Of a DNA stretch of 24,366 bases, positions 2,492 through 21,200 are shown piece after piece. Position numbers and translations under genes: made by a program. The stretch's first letter is position 1; every line of letters starts with the position of its first letter. The notes beneath the pieces are model-generated. The model was not told where the DNA came from and did no database searches. It worked only from the letters and a program-made list of their open reading frames with translations. Source of the DNA: an uncultured Candidatus Saccharibacteria bacterium (GTDB taxonomy: Bacteria; Patescibacteriota; CAZHWT01); contig CAZQWH010000003.1 of NCBI GenBank assembly GCA_964597145.1, positions 57,113-81,478 on the forward strand. Direction: 5' to 3'.

Positions 2492-3289
2492 ATGGAGATT
2501 TCACCAACCGGGATTGCAATTTGGGCGACAATCATATTGGCCTTTTTTGTTGTGAGTGTTGTTCAAACAATTAAACTAGAGCAGCTAAAACGTGACCATG
2601 AGCATCTCGGTTGTCCACCAGCAACACGGGGCCATGGCCACCAGTCAAAACCTCACGCTGCTACAGCCCAAGAAGCCGAGTCGGTTATACAGCTGGCAGG
2701 GTTCGTATACCAGTTCTGCCAAGTCAAACGGGCTACCTATTTGCCAGATGGAACTACTCCCGAAACCGATGCCGACCACACCATTATGTTACTCATGCAG
2801 GCATTGGTGTTGGCGCCGCGTTATCGGCCCCAGCTCGATTTAGGCTTAGTACTGCAGCTTATCTTAATCCACGACATAGAAGAGACGTACGCCGGCGATA
2901 CGCCCACCCTGCAAATTGATGAGGCCGGCCGGAAGACCAAGGAGCAGCGAGAGGCCAGGGCTCGGCAGCGGATTAAAGCTGAATTCGGCTCCGTCTTTCC
3001 CTATTTAGTAGGGTTGCTCGAATTGTACGCGCGACAGGATACGCCGGAGGCACGGTTTGTCAAAATGTTGGATAAATTAATGCCCAACTTAAGCCATGTT
3101 CTCAATGGGGGTGTTACCCTGCACCAGGCTGGCATTACCCTGGAAGAGTATCAAGTTGGGACTAAAGAGCGTACCCAATTTTATCTCTCCACCAGCTATG
3201 GAGCGGACAATCCCGAGTTGTTGTCGTTACGCGACGCCCTACGGCCCTTCCTAGAAAAGGCCGTCTATGGCACCACTTGCCCTAGCTAA
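2492..3289 (+). CDS. HD-domain phosphohydrolase, YfbR-like 5'-deoxynucleotidase family, with N-terminal TM helix
   Basis: DADHTIMLLMQALVLA ... ILIHDIEETYAGDTPT (H...HD...D metal ligands); RBS AGGAGCA; GC-richer than neighbours. Confidence 0.6.
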   Translation: MEISPTGIAIWATIILAFFVVSVVQTIKLEQLKRDHEHLGCPPATRGHGHQSKPHAATAQEAESVIQLAGFVYQFCQVKRATYLPDGTTPETDADHTIMLLMQALVLAPRYRPQLDLGLVLQLILIHDIEETYAGDTPTLQIDEAGRKTKEQREARARQRIKAEFGSVFPYLVGLLELYARQDTPEARFVKMLDKLMPNLSHVLNGGVTLHQAGITLEEYQVGTKERTQFYLSTSYGADNPELLSLRDALRPFLEKAVYGTTCPS

Positions 3290-3335
3290 ACCAATGGCGA
3301 CCCCAAAATAATCGGGTCGCCATTTACATTTTCAT

Positions 3336-5036: not shown

Positions 5037-5154
5037 TCGTTGCCTCATATTCTCCCATCAGCAGAAACAAAGTCTAATCCATTCCTTTACCTTAACCCTA
5101 TAATAATGTATACTTTGGCAGAATTGGTCTGCCAACACACGATAGGAGAAGGAC

Positions 5155-7260: not shown

Positions 7261-7394
7261 ATCCGTATTAGTACAAATCGTAGCCAGATTAGCCCAAATG
7301 CGATATAATCCTATCCGTTGGAAGAGGTTTACGGTGTCAGGTTATAACTGTCCGCTACTTATCCCTTATACCTTGGACCTTATCCCTACACCAT

Positions 7395-7413
7395 CGTGGA
7401 TGTAGCTCAGCTG
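7395..7413 (+). repeat. Duplicated 5' fragment of tRNA-His (TGGATGTAGCTCAGCTG)
   Basis: 17-19 nt identical to 7517-7533, lying ~100 bp upstream of the intact gene; no tRNA fold follows. Confidence 0.6.
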
Positions 7414-7514
7414 CAACGGCGTAGCCGGAATGCAGACAATAAGCGCCTTGCTCTAATCAGCGGAGAGCAATTGATAGAGTAAAATAAGTCGGTACAACTA
7501 AATAAAATACTTAT

Positions 7515-7592
7515 GGTGGATGTAGCTCAGCTGGTTAGAGCGCCTCTCTGTGGAAGAGGAGGTCGTGGGTTCAAGTCCCATCATCCACCCCA
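7515..7592 (+). tRNA. tRNA-His (anticodon GTG) with encoded G-1 and CCA
   Basis: Cloverleaf: G-1:C73, acceptor GTGGATG/CATCCAC, D-stem GCTC/GAGC, anticodon loop CTGTGGA, T-arm GTGGG-TTCAAGT-CCCAT, CCA 7590-7592. Confidence 0.9.
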
Positions 7593-7767
7593 GTAAACTT
7601 CACTTCGTTTCGCTTACTTGAAGTGGTGTGAAGTTTGCTGAAGATAAGCGAAGCTCAAAGAGCGAAGTTTATCCATTAAACTACGCCAGGGCTACGCTTA
7701 ATTGGGATTAAACTTATAGTTAATCTTAGACATCATCATATTCGCTGCCTCGCTACAATGAGGATTC

Positions 7768-8079
7768 ATGTACTACACCTATATTCTACGCAGTCAGAGC
7801 CAGCCAGGCGCTATTTACATCGGCCATACTACTGATTTGAAATCACGCCTTAAGCAACATAACGCCACTTCAAGTGAAAACTACAGCAGGAGGCATGCCG
7901 CTTTGACTGTCGAGACCTATATAGTTTTCAGCAACCATAATGATGCCAAAGCATTTGAATTCTACCTAAAATCAAATTCAGGCAAAGCGTTTATGCGCAA
8001 AGGGCTTATATCAAATCGGTTCAAAGAAGCCTTGGCAAAGTTTAACAATGGTCGCACTAAATTAAGCGAATCGCCGTAA
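7768..8079 (+). CDS. Small GIY-YIG nuclease-domain protein (UPF0213/YhbQ-like)
   Basis: YTYILRS...GAIYIGHTTDLKSRLKQHN matches GIY-x10-YIG...R...H..N; 103 aa. Confidence 0.75.
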   Translation: MYYTYILRSQSQPGAIYIGHTTDLKSRLKQHNATSSENYSRRHAALTVETYIVFSNHNDAKAFEFYLKSNSGKAFMRKGLISNRFKEALAKFNNGRTKLSESP

Positions 8080-8155
8080 AGTTTAATCATCCACCATTCT
8101 GATGTTTGATGGAATTATCGTAATTAACGCTCATACTTAACGTGATCGACAATTA

Positions 8156-8184
8156 TTGATTTTAGACCTATAGCATGATATAAT
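8156..8184 (+). promoter_or_regulatory. Promoter TTGATT-N17-TATAAT with spacer TTAGACCTATAGCATGA
   Basis: Family member 2; extended -10 TGaTATAAT. Confidence 0.55.
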
Positions 8185-8228
8185 AATTATTGGAGTTTGT
8201 TAGTATCCAACTAGAAAGAGAGAGCAGC

Positions 8229-8534
8229 ATGCGCTACAAGAGGCAAGTTGGAATAGCTGCAGTAATCGCACTAATTTTCGCCAGCCTATATGTCGGCGGA
8301 GTAAGGATCGAGTGGGGTGAGAGCAACGAAGCTTTCGCAGATGATTCCATCCTGATCGACGAGAATTCAACCATAACTGCCTTGAATGGCCATGAGCCTA
8401 TCGATCCAGAATACGGAAACTGGAAGAAGGAGTATCAGCCTCGGGCATACAGCCTTCCAATTGGAGATCAGCTGTGCGTCATAGTCCTTCATCCCGAAAA
8501 TGCCGCTATCAGCTGCCTGCCGCCATCGCAGTAG
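8229..8534 (+). CDS. Hypothetical small protein with N-terminal TM anchor
   Basis: ATG 8229 with RBS GAAAGAGAGAG; the 8190 ATG of the ORF track abuts the -10 box and is probably not transcribed. Confidence 0.45.
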   Translation: MRYKRQVGIAAVIALIFASLYVGGVRIEWGESNEAFADDSILIDENSTITALNGHEPIDPEYGNWKKEYQPRAYSLPIGDQLCVIVLHPENAAISCLPPSQ

Positions 8535-8607
8535 GCATGTTCTAGGCGTGCAATTATATCTTGCAAATGAGGCTCGTTTCGATTAAGTCTCACCTAATAC
8601 ATTCTGT

Positions 8608-8633
8608 AAGGCGCCCAACTAGGCGCCTTTTTC
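8608..8633 (+). terminator. Rho-independent terminator
   Basis: AAGGCGCC-CAACTA-GGCGCCTT then TTTTC. Confidence 0.7.
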
Positions 8634-8697
8634 ATGCTCACAATTGAATTTATAGCAACAATACGCTCGTGTAAGAACTGATTTCGAAATATATCCC

Positions 8698-8715
8698 ATC
8701 ACCCACCCCATGAAG
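8698..8715 (+). repeat. Degenerate copy of tRNA-His 3' end (ATCACCCACCCCATGAAG)
   Basis: 14/18 match to ATCATCCACCCCAGTAAA of the tRNA. Confidence 0.4.
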
Positions 8716-9043
8716 ATTTCACCATTTATCACACCTGATGGGATGTTTTGACTACAAGGGCCAACTCGGGCAATCTCATAGATATGTAAACCTATATCTG
8801 TTTTATTCCTATACCTTTACTACAATAGTCATCGATTGATCGATTACAGACCTAGTGTTTAGAAGATGTGGAATGACGCTGATTCACCACAGTGAAGTAG
8901 TAGATGTCCTACGATCATTTGCTGTAGCTGGAGATCCAGCTCTACTAGACCTCAGTAATCTTGCGGTTCAGATCGCAATCTGCTGGTGAATTCAACCGAG
9001 AATAACTCAGCTCCACTAAGCACTTTGAGCCACAACACTCTAT

Positions 9044-9070
9044 GGCACCGGGCAAGCACCGGTGCCATTT
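9044..9070 (+). terminator. Hairpin terminator-like structure with no upstream annotated gene
   Basis: GGCACCGG-GCAAGCA-CCGGTGCC then ATTTCTATT; abuts the palindromic element. Confidence 0.4.
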
Positions 9071-9126
9071 CTATTGAGGTCTATTGAGGTTTAACCCCAA
9101 CCCCCTTGTTGGGGTTAAACCTCAAT
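9071..9126. repeat. Long palindromic element, copy 1 (arms CTATTGAGGTCTATTGAGGTTTAACCCCAAC, core CCCCTT)
   Basis: 31-nt left arm with tandem TCTATTGAGG, 19-nt matching right arm; asymmetric 6-bp centre. Confidence 0.6.
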
Positions 9127-9305
9127 TAATACTCAGGCATCTGTCTGAGCTTTATATTTACTGGATTGATGAGCGAGAACCCACCGATTCAGAGCCTTAG
9201 GCAGCCATTCTGTGCCAACGAGCAACAGAATAGGCGAACTAGGCATTTTCACGTAAGTGAAGAACCCCATTATCCACCCTTCCTTAAAATTACAGAGATA
9301 AATTG

Positions 9306-9337
9306 GCATAAATGGCTATTTAAATAGCCATTTATGC
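9306..9337. promoter_or_regulatory. 32-bp perfect palindrome GCATAAATGGCTATTT|AAATAGCCATTTATGC
   Basis: Exact dyad symmetry, 15 bp upstream of an att-like copy; candidate protein-binding site. Confidence 0.4.
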
Positions 9338-9352
9338 TACAGTGCAAAAACA

Positions 9353-9374
9353 ATCATCCACCCAGGTAAATTTT
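9353..9374 (+). repeat. att-like copy of tRNA-His 3' end (ATCATCCACCCAGGTAAATTTT)
   Basis: Matches the tRNA 3' end and the copies at 10000 and 10854, including the TAAATTTTC extension. Confidence 0.6.
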
Positions 9375-9420
9375 CTCCTCTATAATAACTAAACCGACAT
9401 GAGATCATTGTGATCTTACC

Positions 9421-9449
9421 TTGACATAAGACCTATAGTTATATATACT
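9421..9449 (+). promoter_or_regulatory. Promoter TTGACA-N17-TATACT with spacer TAAGACCTATAGTTATA
   Basis: Family member 3. Confidence 0.55.
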
Positions 9450-9507
9450 AATTCTGAACATCTCTTGTTTGGCCTTTTGACGTTTTAACTATTCAAGGAG
9501 TAACCAC

Positions 9508-9906
9508 ATGAGTGTCGTTACAAGTCTGCGAGAAAAGATCGCCTCGGAACAGCATGCTATCTGGTCTCACTGGATGAAGTACATGTTCACTCAGGGGATC
9601 TACAACAAAGACGGCAGTTGGATAATGCCAGCTGAAAAGGTTGAGCGGTGGAGTCGGCAAATGAATACCGACTACGTCGACTTGACCGACAAAGAGCGCG
9701 AAAGTGATCGCGATCAGGCAGATAAAGTGCTTGCAATTGCTGGTGCTAAAGTTATTCCCAAACTTACCGATGAAGAGCTTCAAACTTGGTTCAGCAACTT
9801 GCCTCCAGTGCCGACTGAAGAGGAAGAGGGTCTTGACCGCATTATCAACGATGCATTCCACAAGGTCTTCGGCCGTCCACTTAATCCAAGTGCACGACCG
9901 GAGTAG
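9508..9906 (+). CDS. Hypothetical protein (132 aa), cassette cargo
   Basis: RBS AAGGAG 7 nt upstream, own promoter and terminator; no recognisable domain. Confidence 0.55.
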   Translation: MSVVTSLREKIASEQHAIWSHWMKYMFTQGIYNKDGSWIMPAEKVERWSRQMNTDYVDLTDKERESDRDQADKVLAIAGAKVIPKLTDEELQTWFSNLPPVPTEEEEGLDRIINDAFHKVFGRPLNPSARPE

Positions 9907-9939
9907 ACTCGTAATAAATGCTGGCCTGGGTCAACCCGT

Positions 9940-9966
9940 TGGCGCCCCCTTGGGCGCCATTTTTAT
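9940..9966 (+). terminator. Rho-independent terminator
   Basis: TGGCGCCC-CCTT-GGGCGCCA then TTTTTAT. Confidence 0.7.
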
Positions 9967-9999
9967 ATGCACATTGTTAATAAAGTCCAAACATTGCTC

Positions 10000-10024
10000 A
10001 ACCATCCACCCCAGTAAATTTTCC
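10000..10024 (+). repeat. att-like copy of tRNA-His 3' end; 16-mer CATCCACCCCAGTAAA identical to 7582-7597
   Basis: Exact 16-nt identity with the tRNA-His 3' end and flank. Confidence 0.75.
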
Positions 10025-10239
10025 CACCTTTCCACAGATAATCAAAACCCCATTTCATCATTCACCTTATGGCATATCTGAAAACCCCTTTTAGACAACA
10101 GCCTTGTGGCAAATCGTCAACTAGAACCGCCGTTAGCTGCAAGTTCGTATTTCGGTAGCACTATTGCTTAAAAGTAACTAGTATTAACGCGAATTACGAA
10201 GCTCAATTTATTCCTTTTATAGCAGCAATGAAAACATTT

Positions 10240-10345
10240 GAGTTATCGTCATTGCGAGCGCAGCGCGGCAATCTAGGTTGGATTACACCCCAGGCAGGAT
10301 TGCTTCGTTTCACTCGCAATGACGTAAAATGCAAAATTATCAGAG
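10240..10345. repeat. Structured repeat, copy B (nested inverted repeats CGTCATTGCGAG...CTCGCAATGACG; GCAATC...GATTGC), flanked by GCGAATTACGAA / TTCGTAATTCGC
   Basis: 12-bp outer stem plus inner stem; related to 3336-3440; candidate small structured RNA or MITE-like element. Confidence 0.4.
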
Positions 10346-10556
10346 ATGTAGTTTCGTAATTCGCGTTATTACCTGAATTGTCGTCGTTTTTCTTCTTACA
10401 CCACTATAGTATTCCATATGAGTTTTCAGAGGGCTATCGTTTCACCAGCTATATGGTTCTGAGTCGTCCGCCCAAGGGTAGCTATTTTGTTATAAGGTTG
10501 ATTGTTAACATAGAAAATGTTATAAGAGTTTAGCTGGATACCTTTCTAGCATCCGA

Positions 10557-10580
10557 CGCGTAAGCATATATGCTTACGCG
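10557..10580. promoter_or_regulatory. 24-bp perfect palindrome CGCGTAAGCATATATGCTTACGCG just upstream of the RBS of the small basic protein gene
   Basis: Exact dyad; ends 7 nt before the SD AAGAGGAG. Confidence 0.45.
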
Positions 10581-10600
10581 CAGCAAGAGGAGACGCCGTC

Positions 10601-10777
10601 ATGACTAAGGGTGGCAAGGCGAAACGGAAGGGCTATACGACGATCGGTGAGGTCTTGTTTGGGCCTACGCCAAAGCCCAGCAGCGGACCGCGAAAGAGTA
10701 AGCGGTTCGACAAGTCGAAAAACCATCACGACTCCCGTAAGGGCGGAGGTGGCAACAATACTGGCCGCCGCCGCTAA
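10601..10777 (+). CDS. Small highly basic protein (58 aa, K/R/G-rich), not in the ORF track (<60 aa)
   Basis: ATG 10601 with strong SD AAGAGGAG 8 nt upstream, stop TAA 10775-10777, followed by a terminator; GC-rich; translation MTKGGKAKRKGYTTIGEVLFGPTPKPSSGPRKSKRFDKSKNHHDSRKGGGGNNTGRRR. Confidence 0.5.
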   Translation: MTKGGKAKRKGYTTIGEVLFGPTPKPSSGPRKSKRFDKSKNHHDSRKGGGGNNTGRRR

Positions 10778-10790
10778 CCCACTGCAGCTG

Positions 10791-10830
10791 GCCGTGTTCT
10801 CGAGGAATTTCTCGAGAACACGGCTTTTAC
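10791..10830 (+). terminator. Rho-independent terminator
   Basis: GCCGTGTTCTCGAG-GAATTT-CTCGAGAACACGGC then TTTTAC. Confidence 0.75.
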
Positions 10831-10853
10831 TAAATTCTAAAATTGTCCAACCA

Positions 10854-10875
10854 ATCACCCTCAGTAAAATTTTCC
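10854..10875 (+). repeat. att-like copy of tRNA-His 3' end (ATCACCCTCAGTAAAATTTTCC)
   Basis: Matches the 9353 and 10000 copies; related CCAACCAATCACC(C)TCA recurs at 11616-11630. Confidence 0.55.
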
Positions 10876-10965
10876 TTTTTATCTCATATAGACCTACCGT
10901 CATCTCATTTCTCTTACTGGGATGTTTGAACCTTAACTCGCACGTCCTATCATGGGCTATGATTC

Positions 10966-10995
10966 TTGACACATAGACCCATAGTGTGATATAAG
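10966..10995 (+). promoter_or_regulatory. Promoter TTGACA-N17-ATATAA with spacer CATAGACCCATAGTGTG
   Basis: Family member 4. Confidence 0.5.
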
Positions 10996-11033
10996 TTTCC
11001 TGTGGATTTTGGTCTAGACTGAGAGGAAAGGCG

Positions 11034-11540
11034 ATGCGAATTCCAACCGTTTTCTTTCTATTGATTGTCATGATCGGAGGAGGAGCTTCCGCTTCGGCAC
11101 AAACATCAACTGAAACTCCACTCAATGAATATCCATTGACCTCGGATGGGGCATACAATGCCACCATCCGAATGGTCGACCACGATCACCTATACCAACC
11201 TATGGAGTGTGGAGTATTTTACTTCCTAGCTCCAGATACCGATATAGTCGATTTTCTTGAGGGTCGACCCGAGACCGAAGTAGGCGCGCCTACAGCGTAT
11301 ACCGACCGAGATGGAATTGCCCGGGCTCGCCTTGAGCCTAATGCTAGCGGTGTATCGCGGGACTTCATCGTCCTGTACGGGCCTCTCGAAGATTGCCCAT
11401 CAGGACTCGCCTGGACGACGCTTGATGGGTTCATCAGAGTTGGTTCAGACGGAATCGCTGCATATATTCCATATGATCAGGGATCCAGTAATTTGCCACC
11501 TTTCAACTGGCAACTCGGCGTCCTAACCGTCTACGGTTAA
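11034..11540 (+). CDS. Hypothetical secreted protein with signal peptide
   Basis: MRIPTVFFLLIVMIGGGASASAQTS signal-like N-terminus; RBS GAGAGGAAAGG; GC-rich. Confidence 0.6.
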   Translation: MRIPTVFFLLIVMIGGGASASAQTSTETPLNEYPLTSDGAYNATIRMVDHDHLYQPMECGVFYFLAPDTDIVDFLEGRPETEVGAPTAYTDRDGIARARLEPNASGVSRDFIVLYGPLEDCPSGLAWTTLDGFIRVGSDGIAAYIPYDQGSSNLPPFNWQLGVLTVYG

Positions 11541-11689
11541 CGACACACGCCCGGCTCTTTGTACATCGCTAAGGGCCGGGCGGCTTTCATTTCAAAAGCA
11601 AATTCTCATAGCACCCAACCAATCACCTCATTAAGCTTCGCGTAATTAGATTGAACTACATACATCCCCCAACCATCCTTTCCTAAATT

Positions 11690-11755
11690 CTATTGAGGTC
11701 TATTGAGGTTTAACCCCAACAAGGGGGTTGGGGTTAAACCTCAATAGACCTCAAT
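11690..11755. repeat. Long palindromic element, copy 2 (same arms as 9071-9126, core AAGGGG = reverse complement of copy-1 core)
   Basis: Near-perfect 29-31 nt arms; centre inverted relative to copy 1. Confidence 0.6.
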
Positions 11756-11768
11756 TAAATCAACCTTA

Positions 11769-11798
11769 TTGACGATTTAGCCTATAGCATGATATATT
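11769..11798 (+). promoter_or_regulatory. Promoter TTGACG-N17-TATATT with spacer ATTTAGCCTATAGCATGA
   Basis: Family member 5. Confidence 0.55.
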
Positions 11799-11843
11799 GC
11801 TTCAGTCGATTTTGCGACAGCTGTTTTCACCAAGGAGAGTTTG

Positions 11844-13232
11844 ATGGAAGTCGGTTCGATAATTGGATTGGGCTTCGGCCTAATCGCAACCGTGGCACTC
11901 CTCGCACTTATCATTTTTGTGATTCACCTACGCAAGGTCGTGCCCACCAACATGGTGCACATCGTGCAGTCCGGCACGGCTACGACCAGCTACGGTAAAG
12001 ACATGGCAGCTGGAAACGCGTACTACGCCTGGCCAGCCTCCCTGCCGCGGCTTGGCGTCTCGGTAATCGCGTTGCCAGTTAGCAACTTCGAAGTGCCTCT
12101 TAAAGACTATGATGCGTACGACAAAGATCGTGTGCCATTCATGGTCGACATAACCGCCTTCGTCCATATCGCTAACACAGAGGTGGCTGCCCAACGGGTT
12201 GCCTCATTTGAAGAACTTGAGGCCCAACTTAGGACTATTGTTCAAGGAGCCGTCCGTAAGGTTCTAGCCTCAGATAACATCGACAACATCATGACGCAGC
12301 GCTCAACCTTTGGCGAAGCTTTTACCCAAGAGGTGAGCGATGGGCTGATGCAGTGGGGAGTTGAGACGGTAAAAAGCATGGAGTTGATGGATATCCGGGA
12401 TGCCAAGGAATCACGCGTCATCGCCGATATTATGGCGAAGAAGATCTCGGATATCAATCGAGAGAGCCGAATCGCCGTCGCCACTAACAACCAAGAAGCC
12501 GAAATGGCTGAACTGCGATCGAAACAAGAGGTCGACCTACGCCGCGAGGAAGTTGAGCAGGCTGTTGGTAAGCGCAAAGCCGAGCGCGAACAGGCTGTTG
12601 GTATGGCCAACGAGGTTTCCCGACAAGAAGTCCTGGAGCTGCAAAAAGAGACGACGCAGCGAAACATGGAAGTTAGGAGCATCGAGGAGACCCGTGAGGC
12701 TCAAATTGCCAGCGCTCGCGCCGTCATTCAGGCCGACCAGGAGCGCCAGACCCAGGAGTTGATCGCGCAAGGTCAACTCAAGGCTAAGGAATTTGAAGCC
12801 CAAGGCATCAAGGCCGAAGGCAACGCGCGAGCCGAAGCGGCAACAGCCATGCAGATGGCGCCAGTTGAAGCTCAGGTGGCTCTGGCTAAGGAAATTGGTA
12901 GCAACGAAGGTTACCAGCAGTTCTTGGCCATGAAGCAGGCTTTGGAGACACACCTGGCGGTCGGCACCGAACAGGCTCGTGCATTGCAAGGCGCTGACGT
13001 TAAGGTTATTGCCAACAGCAATAATGCCTCCGGCGGTGTCAGCAATGTCATGGATCTGTTTAGCGGCCAAGGTGGCACGCAACTGGCAGCCATGGTCGAA
13101 GCCTTCGCCCAGTCGGGCCTAGGCAGCAGCTTCTTCGCCTCAATGCTAAATAGCAGCCAGGCGTCAAGCAATTCGGACGTCATGCGCCAAAATGGTTCCG
13201 GAGATACGTCGGAGGTAATTATGCGGCACTAA
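11844..13232 (+). CDS. Flotillin-like SPFH-domain protein (FloT/YqiK family)
   Basis: N-terminal TM, SPFH domain, long Glu/Ala/Gln-rich coiled-coil flotillin region; ATG 11844 with RBS AAGGAGAG (the track start 11841 is TTG); strongly GC-rich. Confidence 0.85.
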   Translation: MEVGSIIGLGFGLIATVALLALIIFVIHLRKVVPTNMVHIVQSGTATTSYGKDMAAGNAYYAWPASLPRLGVSVIALPVSNFEVPLKDYDAYDKDRVPFMVDITAFVHIANTEVAAQRVASFEELEAQLRTIVQGAVRKVLASDNIDNIMTQRSTFGEAFTQEVSDGLMQWGVETVKSMELMDIRDAKESRVIADIMAKKISDINRESRIAVATNNQEAEMAELRSKQEVDLRREEVEQAVGKRKAEREQAVGMANEVSRQEVLELQKETTQRNMEVRSIEETREAQIASARAVIQADQERQTQELIAQGQLKAKEFEAQGIKAEGNARAEAATAMQMAPVEAQVALAKEIGSNEGYQQFLAMKQALETHLAVGTEQARALQGADVKVIANSNNASGGVSNVMDLFSGQGGTQLAAMVEAFAQSGLGSSFFASMLNSSQASSNSDVMRQNGSGDTSEVIMRH

Positions 13233-13506: not shown

Positions 13507-13566
13507 GGATTTATTTCAAAGAAATAAATCCTATAGTTTGACGTAGTATATAAAATAGTGTATAAC
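13507..13566 (+). promoter_or_regulatory. Promoter region with perfect 11-bp inverted repeat GGATTTATTTC-AAA-GAAATAAATCC overlapping a CCTATAG motif and TATA-rich -10
   Basis: IR at 13507-13531; CCTATAG at 13530-13536; -10 candidates TATATA/TATAAC. Confidence 0.4.
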
Positions 13567-14239: not shown

Positions 14240-14261
14240 TAGGACAGCTCAACAACCACCC

Positions 14262-14290
14262 GGCGGCTCTTTTAGAGCCGCCCTTTTTAT
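14262..14290 (+). terminator. Rho-independent terminator
   Basis: GGCGGCTC-TTTTA-GAGCCGCC then CTTTTTAT. Confidence 0.7.
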
Positions 14291-14395
14291 AGGCACTCAT
14301 AACGCGCTACAACACCCAGCAAATACAGATAAATTACCAAAGGACGAAAGGCAAAGATAATTAATGGATGTCTCAGTGTTGCAGGCAAAAACCTA

Positions 14396-14424
14396 CCGCT
14401 TGTTCTATACTGCTATGGTATACT
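14396..14424 (+). promoter_or_regulatory. Promoter with CTATACTGCTATGGTATACT (extended -10 TGgTATACT)
   Basis: Related to the family motif (CTATGG variant). Confidence 0.45.
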
Positions 14425-14448
14425 CTTACTATAAACTAAGGAGGGATT

Positions 14449-14778
14449 ATGCCAGATAATTTTGATAACCAGATAGAAGATAGTGGCCAACAAGATTCAA
14501 CCAAGCCGCCACTTTATCCAAATGAACCATACGAAGTCGGCGACGAGGAAATGTCCGAGCTTAACCGGGGTGGCCCAGCCACCGATGACCAAATGGTTGA
14601 ACTAGATGATCCAGCCAACCCCAACCCCGACGACCAAAATACCCGCCATTTAGAAGGACCAACTCAGCACGTAGCCGATGTTGAAACCAAGGAATGGGAA
14701 GATAGAGTTGCTGCGGAACAACGCGACCAAGAGCTGGAAGCTACCGATCAAGGCAACCCAACCAATCCTAATCTTTAG
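14449..14778 (+). CDS. Small, extremely acidic, low-complexity protein (about 29 Asp/Glu in 109 aa)
   Basis: Strong RBS AAGGAGGG 4 nt upstream; predicted disordered and Asp/Glu/Pro/Asn-rich. Confidence 0.55.
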   Translation: MPDNFDNQIEDSGQQDSTKPPLYPNEPYEVGDEEMSELNRGGPATDDQMVELDDPANPNPDDQNTRHLEGPTQHVADVETKEWEDRVAAEQRDQELEATDQGNPTNPNL

Positions 14779-14865
14779 CTAATTAATAGCACAATCTATC
14801 CTTCCGTTCATATATCTACATCATTTTTTGCAGAAAATGCCAAGTACATTGTTCGCCATGCATAC

Positions 14866-14902
14866 CCATTCAGGAAAAGGTGGGAGGCATTTGCCTCCCA
14901 CC
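14866..14902 (-). terminator. Terminator for the minus-strand gene (stem GGTGGGAGGCA/TGCCTCCCACC, U-tract on minus strand)
   Basis: Perfect 11-bp stem, TT loop; minus-strand downstream TTTTCCTG. Confidence 0.6.
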
Positions 14903-14948
14903 ATATGTGTTGCCTTGCAGTAGAGAGGGGGCGGGTAGAAGATGGGGT

Positions 14949-15308
14949 TTAGGGCCGGTATTTGTTGGACGACTCGGCATCATCGAGTGGCTCGGTGTGT
15001 GGGGCAGGACTGGATCCAAGTCCAATTCCTTGCTCATAATCACTTCCGCCACTCATGATGATGTGGCCACTGGTGGTTTCCAGCTGAACGTCGCCATTGG
15101 GAAACATGCTGACCAATTGACTCAGCTGCAGTTGGGTCTCGGTGTCCATAGGCACCGAAAACTGAAAGTAGCTCTCTTCCCAGTCAGGGTCGAGGCTGGC
15201 CAGGTTTTTCTCAATCTTCTGCCGCTGCTTCTCTGAAAGCGAAGTTGTCTGGACCGTGACGACGGCACGGTCGGCGGATTCCTGTCTGGTCTTGTTCTTC
15301 CTGAACAT
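14949..15308 (-). CDS. Hypothetical protein (119 aa), GC-rich
   Basis: RBS AGGAGCACA upstream on minus strand; terminator downstream; no recognised domain. Confidence 0.5.
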   Translation of the reverse strand: MFRKNKTRQESADRAVVTVQTTSLSEKQRQKIEKNLASLDPDWEESYFQFSVPMDTETQLQLSQLVSMFPNGDVQLETTSGHIIMSGGSDYEQGIGLGSSPAPHTEPLDDAESSNKYRP

Positions 15309-15526
15309 TTTGTGTGCTCCTGTGATTCCCTCCTACTCACAATGGCAACTACACCTAATGGTATAATAGCGTTACACTACACTCAAGACACAGGCTAGGC
15401 GAGAGGAGAAGATGAGGATGAGAGATCGGGGGTAGGACTGCTGGACGATTCAACCCAAAATCTGTATAACTCATCACCCCCCTTCAATCTCCAACCTCTT
15501 ATCGTCAATCTCTCGAACTCGCAGTG

Positions 15527-15555
15527 TTTGACAACTACCATTTTCACTTCTATAC
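15527..15555 (+). promoter_or_regulatory. Canonical promoter TTGACA-N17-TATACT
   Basis: Exact consensus -35, 17-bp spacer. Confidence 0.5.
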
Positions 15556-15597
15556 TAGCCAAAACAAAAGGCAAGCACCAAACGAGAGGGGACAAAC

Positions 15598-15885
15598 ATG
15601 ACTGCGCCTGTGCTGCCAATACCAACCAGTTCATCACGAATTATAAAAAGTCGGCTACACAATGGTAGTTGGGTAAGCTACATAGAAGTAGCAGATCGCA
15701 ACTTTATCTTACGGTACGAGGTATCGCTGGATGGTAGACCTCTAGGCACGCTAGGATTGCTTATTGCTCCACTATCTGGAGAAAGCCTGTGGTTGGCTTC
15801 GACAGATAATCAAACCTGGTCGCCGCCGGTTTGCAATGAACGCGATGCCGCTAAATTCATTCTACCCGTCAGACCAGCTTGCTAA
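15598..15885 (+). CDS. Hypothetical small protein (95 aa)
   Basis: RBS GAGAGGGGA 6 nt upstream and a consensus promoter 40 nt upstream. Confidence 0.4.
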   Translation: MTAPVLPIPTSSSRIIKSRLHNGSWVSYIEVADRNFILRYEVSLDGRPLGTLGLLIAPLSGESLWLASTDNQTWSPPVCNERDAAKFILPVRPAC

Positions 15886-16067
15886 GCCTATCCTTCCAAC
15901 CAGCATGAGGTGGCCGAATAAAACATTCGGTCACCTCGATTCACTTCTAATATCATTTTAAACTTAGAAATAGATTGAGTTTTGACTTTAAGCCTTAGAA
16001 TGAGGAAATGCTATGGTAGCAACGATTACCATAGGGATGGACTATTCACAGGGTATGAGTCAATACA

Positions 16068-16096
16068 TTGACTGATACCCTATAGTATGATATATT
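16068..16096 (+). promoter_or_regulatory. Promoter TTGACT-N17-TATATT with spacer GATACCCTATAGTATGA
   Basis: Family member 8. Confidence 0.55.
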
Positions 16097-16218
16097 TTCA
16101 GCGCTCAATAACGACAGTCAGTGCGGTAATCCATACAGTACAGCCATGACTGTTGCGATTGAGTAGGATCGTGACTGGTTGGAAGTGATTCCAACTATTG
16201 CATTCAGGGAGAGTTGCA

Positions 16219-16605
16219 ATGCAGGATGTGCCGATGCTGCAAACTGGCGAAGTCGTAGCATTTGATAACGAAGGGGGGTACGGCTTTGTTAGAGATACTC
16301 TGACTCATGTCGACTTGTTTTTTCACGTCAACGAGGTGGGCACACTAACCAGCAAACAGCCCGATAGGTTCACTCTGACCTCGGACGGCTATTATGAGCA
16401 CCGCCCAATGGTAGGCGATCGCCTGGTTTACGTTGCGGATCTTAACTACAAAAAAGGCCCACGAGCAACCGTGTGGATCGATGAACGTAGTTACCGGCAA
16501 CAGCTCAGGTGGATAAAACATCAATGGGCAGCCGAGGCTGCTGCTGTGGAGTCATATAACATATTCTCCATAAGTAGCCTTCACCAAGTCGGAGCCACAA
16601 TGTAG
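16219..16605 (+). CDS. Cold-shock-domain (CSD) protein with C-terminal extension
   Basis: GEVVAFDNEGGYGFVRD...DLFFHVNEV matches the CspA-like RNP motifs; ATG 16219 with RBS GGGAGAG. Confidence 0.6.
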   Translation: MQDVPMLQTGEVVAFDNEGGYGFVRDTLTHVDLFFHVNEVGTLTSKQPDRFTLTSDGYYEHRPMVGDRLVYVADLNYKKGPRATVWIDERSYRQQLRWIKHQWAAEAAAVESYNIFSISSLHQVGATM

Positions 16606-16758
16606 TCACATCCGACATTGTTTTACAAAAAGAGACATTCATCGGGCACTAGCACAACTAGTGCCCTATTCTCATTTCAAGCAGTCAGCATCTCTTAACG
16701 GCCAACCAGCCAGATGCTATACTTTGAATAATCTAAACAGACAAATTGCCACCGCACC

Positions 16759-18987
16759 ATGCCATCTACCGAATTACCCAATCCAATCATCCCTAAACAA
16801 AAAAAACGAAGCTTTGCCGAAATCTTTTTTCCAACCTGGACAGAATCACTGTTACGCAAAGCCCGATCCATGGCTTTTCGCCCCATAGAAACAGCCGATA
16901 TTTTGGCTCACAAATGGGGGCCGCCCACCGCTACCAATACCGCATATACTCATTGGCTAGAGAAGAAATCTATGCTCTACAATGCACGCAAACAAGCATT
17001 GCGACACACCGGCAAAGGCACCATGTGGCAAGTACCTTATGGGCAGGCCCGACCACGGACAGCTATTGCCAAAGCCTCAGTTTGGTATACCGCGTACCCA
17101 ATATCCACCATTACCAAGCCTAAACAGTCTATCCTATCGGCACTTGGAGATGAAAACTTATGGCAAATCTTTGAACAAATTGGTATCCAAGGTTTACATA
17201 CGGGCCCCATGAAGCAGGGAGGAGGCATAACTGGATGGTCATACACTCCCAGTATAGATGGCCATTACGATCGGATCAGCAACGATATCGAACCAGTTTT
17301 CGGCACAAAAACTGAGTACCAACAAATGTGTGCTACAGCCGCCCAATATAATGGGCTAATAATTGATGATTTAATCCCTGGACATACCGGGAAAGGTGCC
17401 GATTTCTTGCTGGCTCAAATGGACTACAAGTATTATCCTGGCATTTACCATATGGTTGAAATTGACCGCAAGGATTGGCGATGGCTACCCGAGGTGCCAA
17501 AAGGATACGCATCTATCAATATTAGCCCGGAAATAGAAGAAAAACTAAAGCAAGCAGGGTATATTATTGGTAAATTTGAACGGGTAATTTTTTATGAACC
17601 AGGTGTAAAAGAGACAAACTGGAGTGTGACTAAAGAAATTCGCGGGGTAGACGGCGAAAAACATCGCTGGGTGTATTTACATTACTTTAAAGATGGACAA
17701 CCGGCTATCAACTGGCTCGATCCTACCTTTGCCGGTATCCAGCTAGTAATGGGCGATGCCCTGCACTCCCTCACCGAATTAGGAGCTGGTGGTTTGCGGC
17801 TAGATGCTAACGGTTTTTTGGGGGCCGAAGTCGGCAGCGCCGATAAGCCAGCTTGGTCTGAGGGCCATCCGTTATCAGTCGCTGCTAACCAACTCGTAGC
17901 GAGCATGGTGCGCAAAGTGGGGGGCTTTACCTTCCAGGAACTAAATCTACCGTTGGAAGATATAAAAGCCAACGCTGCCTTTGGCGCCGATTTATCGTAC
18001 GATTTCATTACCCGTCCCGCGTACCATCACTCGCTAGCTACGGGGGACACCGAGTTTTTGCGCTTAATGATGCGCCAGACTCTAGAAATTGGCATCGATC
18101 CGGCCTCCCTCGTCCATGCCCTCCAAAACCACGATGAGTTAACCTACGAACTCGTCCACTTTTGGACATTGCACAAAGATGAGGAATTTTACTTTCAAGG
18201 ATCTATTTTAAAAGGCAGTCAATTACGACAGGTAATTAGAGAGCAGTTAGCAGAGGCGTTAATTGGCGATAAACACACCTACAACAAACCATTTACCGAG
18301 AATGGCATAGCCTGTACGACCCTGAGCGTGATTGCCGCCGTATTGGGCATAGAGTCGTTCAATGCCATCACCAAAGAACAACAAGAACTGATGAAAAAGA
18401 TTCATCTGCTATTAGCCATGTTTAACGCACTGCAACCGGGGGTATTTGCTTTATCTGGCTGGGATATGGTTGGTGCTTTTGTCTTAAACAACAGCCAAAT
18501 CCCCGAACTAATAGCTACTGGCGATACCCGCTGGCTTAATCGAGGTGCATACGATGTTATGGAGGTAAATCCCACCGCAAACGAGTCAATCACTGGCATC
18601 CCCCGAGCTCCACAGTTATACAAGTCTCTCCCAGAACAACTCAAAGATCCCCATTCATTCGCCAGCCAGCTGCAGCAGATTCTGAAAGTTAGAGCCTCAG
18701 TCAATCTAGCTACTAGCCATCAAATCGCCATCCCCGAAGTTGGGCATAAAGGTATTTTGGTAATGCTTCATCAACTAGATACTGGTCAATTGCAAGCTAC
18801 CGTCTTAAACTTTACCCCACAAACCATATCCGAGACCATTCATTCTCCTCATTTTGCAGCCGGCGCCGAGGTAACGAATATGTTTGACCACCACACAATT
18901 AGCACCGTTACCAAACACCACCATTTCGATATAACCTTGGAGCCATACCAAGGCCTCCCACTGCTCATTTCTACTCAGCAACCTTAG
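16759..18987 (+). CDS. GH13-family alpha-glucan-active enzyme (alpha-amylase catalytic domain)
   Basis: Conserved regions DDLIPGHTG (I), GGLRLDANGF (II), AEVGS (III), LQNHDE (IV); start uncertain (no SD at 16759). Confidence 0.75.
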   Translation: MPSTELPNPIIPKQKKRSFAEIFFPTWTESLLRKARSMAFRPIETADILAHKWGPPTATNTAYTHWLEKKSMLYNARKQALRHTGKGTMWQVPYGQARPRTAIAKASVWYTAYPISTITKPKQSILSALGDENLWQIFEQIGIQGLHTGPMKQGGGITGWSYTPSIDGHYDRISNDIEPVFGTKTEYQQMCATAAQYNGLIIDDLIPGHTGKGADFLLAQMDYKYYPGIYHMVEIDRKDWRWLPEVPKGYASINISPEIEEKLKQAGYIIGKFERVIFYEPGVKETNWSVTKEIRGVDGEKHRWVYLHYFKDGQPAINWLDPTFAGIQLVMGDALHSLTELGAGGLRLDANGFLGAEVGSADKPAWSEGHPLSVAANQLVASMVRKVGGFTFQELNLPLEDIKANAAFGADLSYDFITRPAYHHSLATGDTEFLRLMMRQTLEIGIDPASLVHALQNHDELTYELVHFWTLHKDEEFYFQGSILKGSQLRQVIREQLAEALIGDKHTYNKPFTENGIACTTLSVIAAVLGIESFNAITKEQQELMKKIHLLLAMFNALQPGVFALSGWDMVGAFVLNNSQIPELIATGDTRWLNRGAYDVMEVNPTANESITGIPRAPQLYKSLPEQLKDPHSFASQLQQILKVRASVNLATSHQIAIPEVGHKGILVMLHQLDTGQLQATVLNFTPQTISETIHSPHFAAGAEVTNMFDHHTISTVTKHHHFDITLEPYQGLPLLISTQQP

Positions 18988-19020
18988 CCTTACGATAGTG
19001 CAGTCTGCTGAGAGGTTGTT

Positions 19021-19147
19021 CTGACTATAGGCCTATTTTATGTTATACTAATTTATAGAGGAAATTTTAGTCTAAGGTAAGAATTCTGACGAAATCCGCC
19101 GTCACCACAAAACCCCTTGGTATTTCACCAAGGGGTTTTGTTTTTTA
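19021..19147 (+). ncRNA. Candidate small RNA: promoter (CTGACT-N17-TATACT) followed about 55 nt later by a strong intrinsic terminator, with no ORF between
   Basis: Terminator AAAACCCCTTGG-TATTTCA-CCAAGGGGTTTT then GTTTTTT at 19107-19147; no ATG in the about 90-nt transcribed stretch. Confidence 0.3.
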
Positions 19148-19269
19148 AAAGACTTTAACATATCAATCTAAGCATTGGCCAAAAGTTTTGGTGAATGAAA
19201 AATAAGGAGATAGCTCAACTCTCATTGGTTTTTGCAGTAAAAAGGGAGCGATTATCGACCACCAATGGC

Positions 19270-19531
19270 TTAGGGAATAAGATAATGAGTGGCATCTATA
19301 CTCCATTTTTGAGTGGTGGCATCCAAAAATAAAGTTAGCTGTAATCCGCTATCAGCTACAACCTCATAAATATTAACCAAGTTTTTATCGTAGTCTAGTT
19401 GTTGACGAAAACTGGCTTCGGTTACCCGCATCTGCTTATTATTCCAGCGCACAATATGCGGCAAGTAGCGTTTTTTAGCTGGTGAGTAAATTGTCGCCAC
19501 CGAGATACTTGTATCGATACAGTCAGTCATG
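19270..19531 (-). CDS. Hypothetical protein (86 aa)
   Basis: ATG at 19531 with RBS GGGAGA 4 nt upstream on the minus strand (track start 19542 is TTG). Confidence 0.5.
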
Positions 19532-19742
19532 CAGTCTCCCAACTACCCATAATAAACCCGAATCTCAATCTAATTATGAGCGTAAAAGAGTAGAGCGTCA
19601 AGTAGGCAACTTTAGGCCCTGTATGAAAGTAATTACGAAAGATATATTTTCTTTTAATGTTAAATAAAGGATCGTAGCCAAAGAAAACACTAATGCATAA
19701 GTAGTGCTAGCCATGAGCTCGCGCGAGTTAGCAGGCAACCTA

Positions 19743-19771
19743 TTGACTATTAGCCTATAGTATTATATAAT
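19743..19771 (+). promoter_or_regulatory. Promoter TTGACT-N17-TATAAT with spacer ATTAGCCTATAGTATTA
   Basis: Family member 10. Confidence 0.55.
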
Positions 19772-19807
19772 TTAGACATCGTCTTCGGCAGAGCAGGGAG
19801 AAATCTC

Positions 19808-20092
19808 ATGCACACAGGCGAAAATCTTCAGCCACCAACAGCTGGGGAGTTAAAGGGATTAGCCGCGCTGATGATTATGGCAAACATCTTTGTTGTAATC
19901 TTTGGCTGCTATATTCCTCTCAGTGTTGGTGTCAGCCTTGGTTCAGAAATCAGCGGTAGCGGATTGTCCACCGCTGAAATCCTGAAGCATCTGGTTGGCG
20001 CGGCAGGATGCGTGTTATTCGGCATCATCTTGCCAGTACTGTTTGGCTGGATTTCAATCGAGTGCGTCAGTAAAGCATACCGACGCCATTAG
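19808..20092 (+). CDS. Small membrane protein (2 predicted TM helices)
   Basis: RBS GGGAG 7 nt upstream; hydrophobic segments. Confidence 0.55.
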   Translation: MHTGENLQPPTAGELKGLAALMIMANIFVVIFGCYIPLSVGVSLGSEISGSGLSTAEILKHLVGAAGCVLFGIILPVLFGWISIECVSKAYRRH

Positions 20093-20133
20093 AAACCCTG
20101 CCATCCAAAACAATCACCGCCATTGCGGTGAAA

Positions 20134-20165
20134 GGGCCGCCCCGTGGGGCGGCCCTAATTTTTGG
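20134..20165 (+). terminator. Rho-independent terminator
   Basis: GGGCCGCCCC-GTG-GGGCGGCCC then TAATTTTT. Confidence 0.7.
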
Positions 20166-20246
20166 CAATTTGAACCAACCCACCTAATGACCAACTCCAA
20201 TCCAGCACGTCTTTACAGGAAGAGGGTTGACTGCTACAGTAGAAAC

Positions 20247-20474
20247 ATGTTTAAACGAAAATCAGCCGATCAATTGACATTCTACGGAGTGGCACTATTG
20301 CTCATACTGGCAGGAGTAAGTATTCTAGCCTTAGGAGCTGTCCAGCTTATCGGTCAGCTGGCATGGCAGTGGTCTTTTGGCTGGCCAATGGCTAAAGTCA
20401 TGTCTGGCTTAATGATTATCGCCTTAGGATACGTTGTTTTAGAATTAGAATTAATCCGACGAAAGAACAAGTAA
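20247..20474 (+). CDS. Possible small membrane protein (75 aa, 2 TM)
   Basis: Hydrophobic; stop 4 nt before the PIG-L gene start; TTGACT 16-21 nt upstream but no clear SD. Confidence 0.35.
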   Translation: MFKRKSADQLTFYGVALLLILAGVSILALGAVQLIGQLAWQWSFGWPMAKVMSGLMIIALGYVVLELELIRRKNK

Positions 20475-20477
20475 CCT

Positions 20478-21200
20478 ATGAATACTTCCTACAAAGATAA
20501 AGTGGTATTAGCTATTGGAGCCCACCCCGATGATATTGAGTTTGGCTGCGGGGGAACCATGGCTAAGCTCGCCGCAGACGGTGCAACACTCTACTTTGCG
20601 GTTGCTACCGATGGCAACCGAGGTAGTCGCCAGCATGAATTTGAAAAATCAGCCCTCGTTGCCAGCCGAAAACAAGAGCAAGCAGATGCGGCCAAAATCC
20701 TGGGTGCAACTGAAGTTATATTTCTAGACGAAGAAGATGGAAACCTGCTAGCCGACCTTTCATTTAAAGAAAAGGTGGTACGACTGGTGCGACGAATTAA
20801 GCCAGATATGATTTTCACTCATGACCCTAACTGGTACTATCGCCAAAATGACGATGGCACAGCCTCGGTTAACCACAACGACCACCGTGCCTGCGGAGTG
20901 GCCGTATTAGACACGGTTTACCCCTTGGCCCGTGATTTGCAATCGTTCCCCGATCATGCAGTTGAAGGTTTAATGCCACATATTACTCCAGAGCTTTATC
21001 TATGGACATTTGACCAACCAGGATTTGCCTTTGACATAACGAACCATTTTAAGACGAAGATTCAATCAATTGGTGCTCATAAAAGTCAAATCGATGACCT
21101 GGAAACAGTGACCAAGCGAATGAAGGCGCGCCATCAACAATTAGGCAAGCTAAGCGACCTAGAGATGGCCGAGTGCTTTATTCGGTTAGTTTTTAAATAA
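20478..21200 (+). CDS. PIG-L/LmbE-family N-acetylglucosaminyl deacetylase
   Basis: VLAIGAHPDDIEFGCGG and HNDH motifs typical of LmbE-like zinc deacetylases. Confidence 0.85.
   Translation: MNTSYKDKVVLAIGAHPDDIEFGCGGTMAKLAADGATLYFAVATDGNRGSRQHEFEKSALVASRKQEQADAAKILGATEVIFLDEEDGNLLADLSFKEKVVRLVRRIKPDMIFTHDPNWYYRQNDDGTASVNHNDHRACGVAVLDTVYPLARDLQSFPDHAVEGLMPHITPELYLWTFDQPGFAFDITNHFKTKIQSIGAHKSQIDDLETVTKRMKARHQQLGKLSDLEMAECFIRLVFK

Follow-up and report, generated by a model that had tools for sequence, protein, structure and literature searches.

The window analysed here, a stretch of 24,366 nt on contig CAZQWH010000003.1, is a segment of the cellular chromosome of a Candidatus Saccharibacteria bacterium. 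Its sole tRNA gene is an intact tRNA-His(GTG) at 7516-7592 on the plus strand (ARAGORN; Rfam tRNA, 69.9 bits), in which both G-1 (at 7515) and the CCA end are encoded. Downstream of this gene lies a gene-poor array of ~4.25 kb, only ~40% of which is coding, with many palindromes and one element resembling a miniature inverted-repeat transposable element (MITE). Sequences resembling the 3′ end of the tRNA recur through this array in direct orientation, at the boundaries of small units, and it is the nature and origin of these copies that are considered below.

Copies of the tRNA-His 3′ end

The copies are lettered a to h, where a is the end of the tRNA-His gene itself, presumed to be the attachment site (attB) and the anchor of the array, and b to h lie downstream; all coordinates are window positions. 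The exact 16-mer CATCCACCCCAGTAAA occurs at 7582, in the tRNA end, and again at 10003, bearing out the 16/16 copy that an earlier note on this DNA had placed at 10000; a 14/16 copy lies at 9355. The other copies listed in that note were much weaker, and a formal shuffle test was therefore applied, in which the tRNA 3′ 22-mer was compared by Smith–Waterman alignment with each intergenic spacer, using 500 dinucleotide-preserving shuffles per spacer and 18 spacers elsewhere in the window as the control set. Plus-strand matches were significant in five consecutive spacers, those holding copies b (match ending at 8095, p = 0.002), c (8710, p = 0.002), e (9370, p = 0.004), f (10018, p = 0.002) and g (10868, p = 0.006). 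None of the 18 control spacers gave a match at p < 0.05, and the same test on the minus strand gave none at p < 0.01. The enrichment of att-like motifs proposed in the earlier note was thus recovered by permutation, and the recurrence in direct orientation that it described holds for these five spacers, although several of its copies were overstated.

All 10-mers common to at least four array spacers (with at most one mismatch) belong either to TCATCCACCC, the core that resembles the tRNA, or to the promoter element, TAGACCTATA. No comparable downstream array was present at 120 other, unrelated tRNA-His loci (882 kb). These loci came from a metagenome scan with the tRNA 3′ 25-mer; none exceeded 66/77 identity to the tRNA, and they were therefore used only as a negative control. 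Together, the shuffle test, the k-mer survey and the 120-locus control indicate that the copies are real and non-random.

The copies, all on the plus strand, range in quality from perfect (f) to barely recognizable (b, d and h). Copy b (TAATCATCCACC, 8084-8095, Smith–Waterman score 20) lies 6 nt past the stop codon of a GIY-YIG gene and has ~10 matching bases, so that the copy claimed at 8086 is a poor one even though the match in its spacer is significant. Copy c (TCCCATCACCCACCCCA, 8694-8710) matches the tRNA at 16/17 positions (94% over 17 nt); it extends back into the T-stem and terminates precisely at the CCA. Copy e (CAATCATCCACCCAGGTAAATTTTC, 9351-9375) is the one with 14/16 identity to the tRNA core, and it is 88% identical over 25 nt to copy f (CAACCATCCACCCCAGTAAATTTTC, 9999-10023), in which a core identical to the tRNA end at 16/16 positions is followed by the trailer. 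Copy g (CAACCAATCACCCTCAGTAAAATTTTCC, 10848-10875) is aligned with 1-nt insertions and has diverged. The most decayed is copy h (CAACCAATCACCTCATTAAG, 11617-11636), probably the old distal boundary: the earlier note had counted a copy near 11616, but the sequence there is not significantly similar to the tRNA (p = 0.5) and is linked to the series only by 79% identity over 28 nt to the upstream flank of copy g. Two further weak remnants were absent from the earlier list, namely copy d (CCCATTATCCACCCTTCC, 9266-9283), found by alignment and as a 9-mer with at most one mismatch at 9271, and a second distal remnant found by alignment (CAACCATCCTTTCC, 11670-11683).

From the alignment of all copies, the core reads (C)CAAYCATCCACCC-CAGTAAA.TTT. 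The acceptor stem is where copies e, f and g begin, and they extend through GTAAA to 5 nt beyond the CCA. An extension shared by these three and lacking from the tRNA had been put forward in the earlier note; this is correct for TTTTC, which the three have in common and the tRNA lacks, but not for the 'TAAA' part, since GTAAA also trails the tRNA itself. The modules around f and g are homologous over ~107 nt (9977-10082 versus 10827-10930, 67%), with copy f at the module centre. All copies lie in spacers between open reading frames (ORFs), and no Pfam domain overlaps any of them. As judged from the alignments, the varying extent of tRNA identity is what would be expected of the attP identity blocks of different elements, and the arms shared by e, f and g look like attP-like (P-O-P′) junctions between related elements.

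A displaced fragment of the tRNA 5′ end (ATCGTGGATGTAGCTCAGCTG) was found by self-blastn at 7393-7413 on the plus strand, 120 nt upstream of the gene, matching 7513-7533 at 20/21 positions. It may be the scar of a 5′-side integration or of a rearrangement; an upstream 5′ fragment is accepted by the island finder Islander as a configuration of 5′-side integrations (PMC4383910). A promoter-like sequence, TTGATA-16-TACAAC, lies between this fragment and the tRNA.

Units, promoters and repeats between the copies

The first unit (7593-8083, plus strand, as are all the others) consists of a hairpin followed by a 103-aa ORF (7768-8079) for a stand-alone GIY-YIG nuclease domain (Pfam, 5e-14), for which a scan for promoters and terminators found no consensus signal of either kind. 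In the predicted fold, the hairpin is long and imperfect, starts from the last tRNA bases (7591-7640, CAGTAAACTTCACTTCG...TGAAGTTTGCTG) and lacks a T-run; it may serve in termination or processing, or may be one more palindromic insert. Unit 2 (8096-8693) contains a 101-aa ORF (8229-8534, also a Logan gene call) with an N-terminal membrane anchor, preceded by a promoter at 8156-8184 (TTGATT-17-TATAAT with TG) and followed by a hairpin with a T-run at 8608-8635; a search for its family gave no match. Unit 3 (8711-9265) is apparently decayed, as ORF and terminator scans yielded a promoter-like element near 8787, an ORF of only 44 aa and a terminator at 9042-9068, beyond which lie a 58-nt palindromic element (9069-9126) and a hairpin (9132-9149). 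The whole interval 8711-9350 is without a convincing ORF, and the 85 nt between copies d and e contain just a perfect 32-nt palindrome (GCATAAATGGCTATTTAAATAGCCATTTATGC, 9306-9337), directly ahead of copy e.

The interval between copies e and f is a 648-nt unit with one complete gene: within unit 4 (9376-9998), the scans identified a promoter at 9421-9449 (11/12), a 132-aa ORF at 9508-9906 and a terminator at 9940-9959. Unit 5 (10024-10847) holds a very basic 58-aa ORF (10601-10777, also a Logan gene call) and a terminator hairpin at 10791-10824. The interval 10024-10870 is mostly taken up by the MITE-like hairpin, with the 58-aa ORF in the remainder. This MITE-like element (~190 nt, 10181-10372, plus strand) is bounded by terminal inverted repeats of 23 nt (91%), contains a long hairpin, folds as RNA at -76.6 kcal/mol (z = -8.1) and matches no Rfam family at the gathering threshold. 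Between the presumed promoter of the 58-aa ORF and its Shine–Dalgarno sequence there is a perfect 24-nt palindrome (CGCGTAAGCATATATGCTTACGCG, 10557-10580) which, in sequence, looks like an operator. Unit 6 (10876-11616) encodes a 168-aa protein (11034-11540) with a signal-peptide-like N-terminus, between a host-type promoter near 10967-10996 and a weak terminator at 11566-11583; the protein is an orphan, and no homologue other than itself was found.

The description of one self-contained unit in each interval, with promoter, ORF and terminator, is therefore only partly accurate: it does not apply to the GIY-YIG unit, to 8711-9350 or to 10024-10870. GIY-YIG is the sole Pfam domain in the array, and searches of NCBIfam, PADLOC and PHROGs with the cassette proteins yielded no function.

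Promoters across the window have the form TTGAc-N8-CCTATAG-N2-TGnTATAAT, with a conserved CCTATAG in the spacer between the -35 and the extended -10 elements. Sites of this form lie at 779-811, 5076-5116, 8156-8188, 9421-9453, 10963-11011, 11766-11814, 13509-13549, 16058-16098, 19021-19053 and 19733-19773, and the same form is present in sister-species contigs (L012 and L223). Given this window-wide distribution, carrying an own promoter and terminator is the local norm and no special property of a cassette. The G+C content (GC) and the third-position G+C content (GC3) of the array genes match those of their neighbours (0.494 versus 0.487), and a foreign composition of the array was rejected on this basis; the slightly lower regional GC is due to the large non-coding fraction.

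The palindromic element of unit 3 is present twice, at 9069-9126 and at 11687-11760, with arms (TCTATTGAGG)x2-TTTAACCCCAAC. The second occurrence is a near-perfect palindrome of 74 nt between the last att-like copy and the promoter (11769-11798) of a downstream SPFH gene. The 54-nt cores of the two (9073-9126 in the first, and within 11687-11760 in the second) are perfect inverted repeats with the loop flipped, and they bracket 2,575 nt with three cassettes. Neither the fetched loci nor viral contigs contained a further copy of the element. In one Logan contig (L003, SRR11843835), the reverse complement of 9073-9332 is joined to 11702 onward, an inverted arrangement that is either a real invertible segment or a de Bruijn artefact (k = 31). 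Elsewhere in the window, at 7-365, a 26-nt sequence (ATCTCTCCGGGCGCACCA...) is present in three copies with a spacing of 163-170 nt, and Logan contigs begin there too.

Population contigs, relatives and recombinase searches

The lineage is poorly represented in databases. Population data were taken from Logan contigs carrying window proteins, obtained by exact-protein look-ups and all from one run series (SRR118438xx). Contigs from more than 10 samples are 100% identical to the window, and in at least six samples they run uninterrupted through copies e, f and g. Variants with an excision or a deletion at these three copies are not visible in the contigs, and cassette-level polymorphism, to which the earlier note had looked as a sign of mobile units, was sought in the contigs from more than 10 samples and is absent from them. 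All short-read assemblies of this population break in or near the tRNA (ends of contigs L076-L081, within 7425-7619), where the left contigs end at 7425-7562 and the right contig restarts at 7590; contigs also break at palindromes (9098/9308 and 11717/11726). The break at the tRNA implies that the tRNA with ~27 nt of trailer has a second sequence context in the samples, be it in a mobile element or in a further strain or species.

On either side of the array, synteny with relatives is lost; the flanks are ordinary housekeeping and accessory genes (NUDIX, nucleoside deoxyribosyltransferase-like, metallophosphoesterase, HD, SPFH, LiaF-like, amylase-like, PIG-L and ABC ATPase). The NUDIX anchor has one relative only (73% identical), in 1.2-kb contigs, where the LiaF-NUDIX order is conserved but a different gene follows instead of tRNA-His. 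The closest relative of the 462-aa SPFH/flotillin-like protein of the window, at 73% identity, is encoded by a Saccharibacteria metagenome-assembled genome (MAG) of a sister species, L012, in which the SPFH gene and the next gene, of 211 aa, are syntenic with the window. An h-like sequence lies ~80 nt upstream of the SPFH promoter of L012 (24 nt at 79%; Smith–Waterman p = 0.01). The former distal end of the array can thereby be placed at h, immediately ahead of SPFH. The gene ahead of this sequence in L012 is unrelated to the 168-aa gene of the window, and the content of the site thus differs between the species.

The 132-aa protein of unit 4 has a conserved N-terminal domain of ~75 aa that is widespread as proteins of ~80 aa. 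Among the carriers of this domain are Microcystis phages, members of the Ma-LMM01 group (tblastn, 3e-16), and a phage-like early-gene contig with HTH_17, methylase, Gp3-like and T4 RNA ligase genes. An AlphaFold model (predicted local distance difference test score, pLDDT, 83) gave consistent but weak top matches to RyR-domain proteins. A homologue of the gene, 68% identical, was found in a co-occurring relative, with its own host-type promoter and terminator and a different neighbour gene; no tRNA-like motif lies beside it. Four of the five contigs with this sister-species homologue (L223-L227) begin ~125 nt upstream of the gene, and L224 begins 57 nt upstream. These starts hint at a repeat or polymorphism at the equivalent of the left boundary of the cassette in the window.

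All window ORFs of at least 50 aa were scanned for domains, and six-frame translations of the array (7593-11843) were compared with Pfam at E ≤ 1. Over the 24 kb, none of these ORFs contains a domain of an integrase, recombinase, excisionase or transposase, and the six-frame scan returned GIY-YIG alone, with no recombinase remnant, which confirms the earlier observation that no integrase is in view. Searches for a cognate element were likewise negative: none of 2.9 million viral contigs contains the att-like 21-mer, the palindrome and the 132-aa protein gave nothing when searched in viral contigs, and the array had no blastn match among phage records. The viral contigs matched by the tRNA 17-mer were mostly much richer in GC (attP-like fragments and tRNA clusters), and the flanks of the array are present in none of them.

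Three further candidates were set aside. Six boundary modules were folded as single-stranded DNA and gave z-scores of -0.5 to +1.3 relative to shuffles, with no conserved hairpin, and attC-like folding of the boundaries was rejected on these scores. A second conserved inverted motif downstream of each core was dropped as inconsistent, both by eye and by k-mer sharing, and tRNA-primed retro-copying was dropped because the units include promoters.

The SPFH gene itself (11844-13232) has a locally high GC (0.55). Its relatives at 44-61% identity are found in Chloroflexota, Alpha-, Beta- and Gammaproteobacteria, Bdellovibrionota and many lineages of the candidate phyla radiation (CPR), and also in 21 IMG/VR viral contigs, including jumbo-sized ones; the gene is thus a widely transferred one. 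A genome scan found no linkage of SPFH to tRNA-His elsewhere, and of the genomes that it returned only L012 was informative. Further downstream, comparison of window 14283-23093 with L012 2818-10342 revealed a second variable region, in which ~9 kb between the block of SPFH and the 211-aa gene and the block of the ABC ATPase have no counterpart; it is made up of single-gene units, mostly of unknown function.

Origin of the array and comparison with known systems

The co-oriented 3′ fragments outside coding sequence, the identity blocks typical of att sites and the shared arms lead us to read the array, from 7593 to ~11690, as a fossil integration hotspot at tRNA-His, in which successive site-specific insertions have been reduced to single-gene remnants; we hold this interpretation with moderate confidence. 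Co-oriented tDNA fragments in which identity starts or ends at the T-stem junction or the CCA end are a signature of integrase att sites (PMC4383910). In Prochlorococcus, repeated integration at the tRNAs of islands leaves scattered partial tRNAs (bioRxiv 10.1101/2020.12.28.424599), and temperate phages and genomic islands have been reported in Patescibacteria, including Saccharibacteria (PMC12455944). The phage affinity of the 132-aa gene and the loss of synteny on both flanks also favour this interpretation. The suggestion in the earlier note that the att-type copies arose by repeated insertion at this tDNA is thus the best-supported one.

We infer that the origin of the array was integrase-mediated, that its reduction was deletional and that it is inactive at present. 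The tRNA-His 3′ end would have served as attB for several integrative elements that were related yet not the same, most likely temperate phages or satellites that encoded tyrosine integrases. Each insertion would have regenerated the tRNA and moved the prior element downstream, along with the 3′-end copy that it carried. In a deletion-prone, streamlined genome, the elements would then have shed their integrases and nearly all of their remaining genes, and the residue would consist of 'moron-like' promoter-ORF-terminator units, dead spacers and small palindromic or MITE-like repeats, with att scars between them. The array is probably static now, and its surviving genes would be expressed from ordinary host-type promoters.

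Several observations weigh against a fossil hotspot. Decaying islands elsewhere often retain fragments of an integrase, while here the six-frame search detected no integrase or excisionase remnant, even at E ≤ 1. At f and g, the junction module keeps both of its arms, which random deletion need not preserve. The decay is not graded by distance, as copy f, 2.4 kb away, is perfect and copy b, beside the tRNA, is short. The native-like GC and GC3 and the host promoter form provide no compositional sign of foreign origin. Furthermore, no close relative with the same locus was recovered, and no gain or loss of single units was seen.

If the fossil reading is true, tRNA-targeting elements have repeatedly visited a Saccharibacteria chromosome, and all that they have durably left in so streamlined a genome is att scars and a handful of accessory genes, for secreted, membrane, basic and phage-derived proteins. 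The locus would then be a compact record of gene gain by ultra-small episymbionts. To our knowledge, and in the literature searched, tDNA scars of this kind have not previously been described in this phylum. Most likely, however, the explanation is a conventional one, and the locus, seen in one genome, is an unusually miniaturised case of a known feature class.

An origin independent of any recombinase is possible but rather unlikely. The copies would then be RecA- or microhomology-mediated, produced either by Campbell-type insertion of DNA taken up through natural competence, with the conserved tRNA end as the homology patch, or by local duplication or gene conversion of the 3′ end and its trailer, and unrelated genes would have been captured between them later. 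The missing trace of a recombinase fits such an origin, and recombination in this stretch is shown to be active by its fresh-looking repeats, among them the perfect inverted repeat of 54 nt. Patescibacteria commonly have competence and pilus genes, and their horizontal gene transfer is mostly from other Patescibacteria (PMC12455944), which would explain the native-like GC and promoters. However, additive homologous integration would have to act on very short patches, of 10-25 nt, and local duplication predicts homologous unit interiors, whereas the ORFs are unrelated. The strict direct orientation and the canonical sublocations within the tRNA are, moreover, a hallmark of integrase att sites (PMC4383910).

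We consider it improbable that the units are active mini-cassettes, that is, integrase-less miniature cis-mobilizable elements (CIMEs), functionally integron-like, that are excised, reinserted and shuffled in trans at tRNA-His. The recombinase would be a tRNA-His-specific tyrosine integrase from elsewhere in the ~1-Mb genome or from an infecting phage, acting on the tRNA end, e, f and perhaps g; under one variant, the distal 2.6 kb of the array would also be inverted by means of the perfect inverted repeats of 54 nt. The near-intact core of 16-25 nt in e, f and the tRNA and the ~100 nt with both arms at f and g exceed what random decay predicts, and the interval from e to f is a neat 648-nt, one-gene unit. 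The sister-species homologue of the 132-aa gene stands beside a different gene, meaning that this single gene changed neighbours, but it has no adjacent tRNA-like motif. The break of Logan contigs at the tRNA in every sample fits a second context for the tRNA end, but contigs of at least six samples cross e, f and g unbroken and 100% identical, with no excision or deletion variant. Moreover, the 24 kb contain no recombinase, copies b, d and h are too decayed to serve as substrates, the 2.9 million viral contigs lack the att-like 21-mer, no cognate element was found, the boundaries do not form hairpins, and the units carry host-type promoters. The proposal of the earlier note, an integron-like or CIME-like array currently serviced in trans, finds no positive support here, as there is neither a recombinase nor polymorphism and the units bear promoters. 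Were it true, an ultra-small episymbiont would possess a gene-capture platform that is built on a tDNA and resembles an integron; with cassettes mobile in trans, the platform would be of a new type.

A functional cis-element, such as a protein-binding site or a tRNA-mimic processing site acting as a regulatory or RNA-processing signal, is very improbable. The motif is always on the coding strand, preceded by a terminator and followed by a promoter, and apart from the promoter no other spacer element is conserved. However, its distance to the next -35 element varies from ~50 to ~480 nt and that to the preceding terminator from 6 to 60 nt; it sits downstream of terminators and is therefore probably not transcribed. 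It is also absent from the 18 other spacers, which have the same promoter type, its conservation is very uneven among the copies, and it has no secondary structure of its own. Chance, by which a C-rich strand yields CCACCC-like words, can draw on the negative GC skew of the plus strand throughout and on weak look-alikes at 14248-14262 and 15470-15480, but it is effectively refuted by the spacer shuffles (p ≤ 0.006 in five adjacent spacers, controls nil), the exact 16/16 copy and the 107-nt homology of f and g.

Read as a fossil hotspot, the locus resembles the tDNA islands catalogued by Islander, in which displaced 3′ fragments lie downstream of an intact tDNA, in its orientation and outside coding sequence, blocks of identity start at the T-stem/acceptor junction or the acceptor end, and an upstream 5′ fragment is also accepted (PMC4383910). 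Here, too, five significant plus-strand copies lie downstream of the cognate tRNA in the same orientation, clear of conserved coding sequence. Islander further requires a tyrosine integrase and an island of 2-200 kb (PMC4383910). No such integrase was found in the window ORFs or in six frames over 7593-11843. The single intervals, at 0.08-0.85 kb, fall below that length range, whereas the distances from the tRNA to f (2.4 kb) and to g (3.3 kb) are within it; the array as a whole measures ~4.1 kb. Arrays of at least three islands made up 4/3,919 in the Islander survey (PMC4383910), compared with five significant and up to eight recognizable fragments at this locus. The locus flags a class of island that standard finders discard, since an integrase and at least 2 kb are required.

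The tycheposon islands of Prochlorococcus are alike in that a streamlined genome has a single tRNA from which older elements are pushed into the island, leaving partial tRNAs and remnants, usually without a live element (bioRxiv 10.1101/2020.12.28.424599). A tRNA-adjacent island with partial tRNA copies is what we observe as well. They differ in spanning tens of kb, with fragmented integrases and identifiable tycheposon modules, whereas here there are only single small genes and att scars: GIY-YIG was the only domain detected, with no integrase or replication module or fragments of one, and from Saccharibacteria no cognate element is known.

The CIMEs described so far measure at least several kb and have a known cognate integrative and conjugative element (ICE) or integrative and mobilizable element (IME), whereas the units here are <1 kb and their mobilization is hypothetical. 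The likeness is that CIMEs, which arise through accretion at the att sites of ICEs and IMEs, are att-bounded segments without recombination or transfer genes, in tandem at a tRNA or another attB (PMC5704250; ICEberg 2.0, PMC6323972), and the units of the array are also att-flanked and devoid of such genes. CIMEs are in principle mobilizable by the integrase of a related element (PMC5704250).

Integron cassette arrays resemble the locus in their co-oriented, mostly single-gene units of 0.6-0.9 kb and their recurring boundary sequence. Integron cassettes are promoterless behind the Pc promoter; units 2, 4 and 6, by contrast, have strong host-type promoters and their own terminators. The boundaries here are tRNA-derived, without attC-like hairpins, and the window holds no integrase, and hence no IntI with an adjacent attI and Pc. 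IntI, attC folding and promoterless cassettes were each tested, all with a negative outcome, and identity as an integron was rejected. Phage morons, or lysogenic-conversion genes, are also autonomous promoter-ORF-terminator units beside att sites, and the gene family of one unit is phage-borne; the difference is that there is no prophage body here, and morons would be the sole survivors.

Another Saccharibacteria MAG (L046, reverse strand, ~3080-3325) carries a tRNA-Val gene with an exact 20-nt copy of its 3′ end (CGAGTCCTGTAACGTCCAC) 167 nt downstream. A partial 5′-like piece lies between the gene and the copy, a second tiny tDNA-fragment scar in this phylum.

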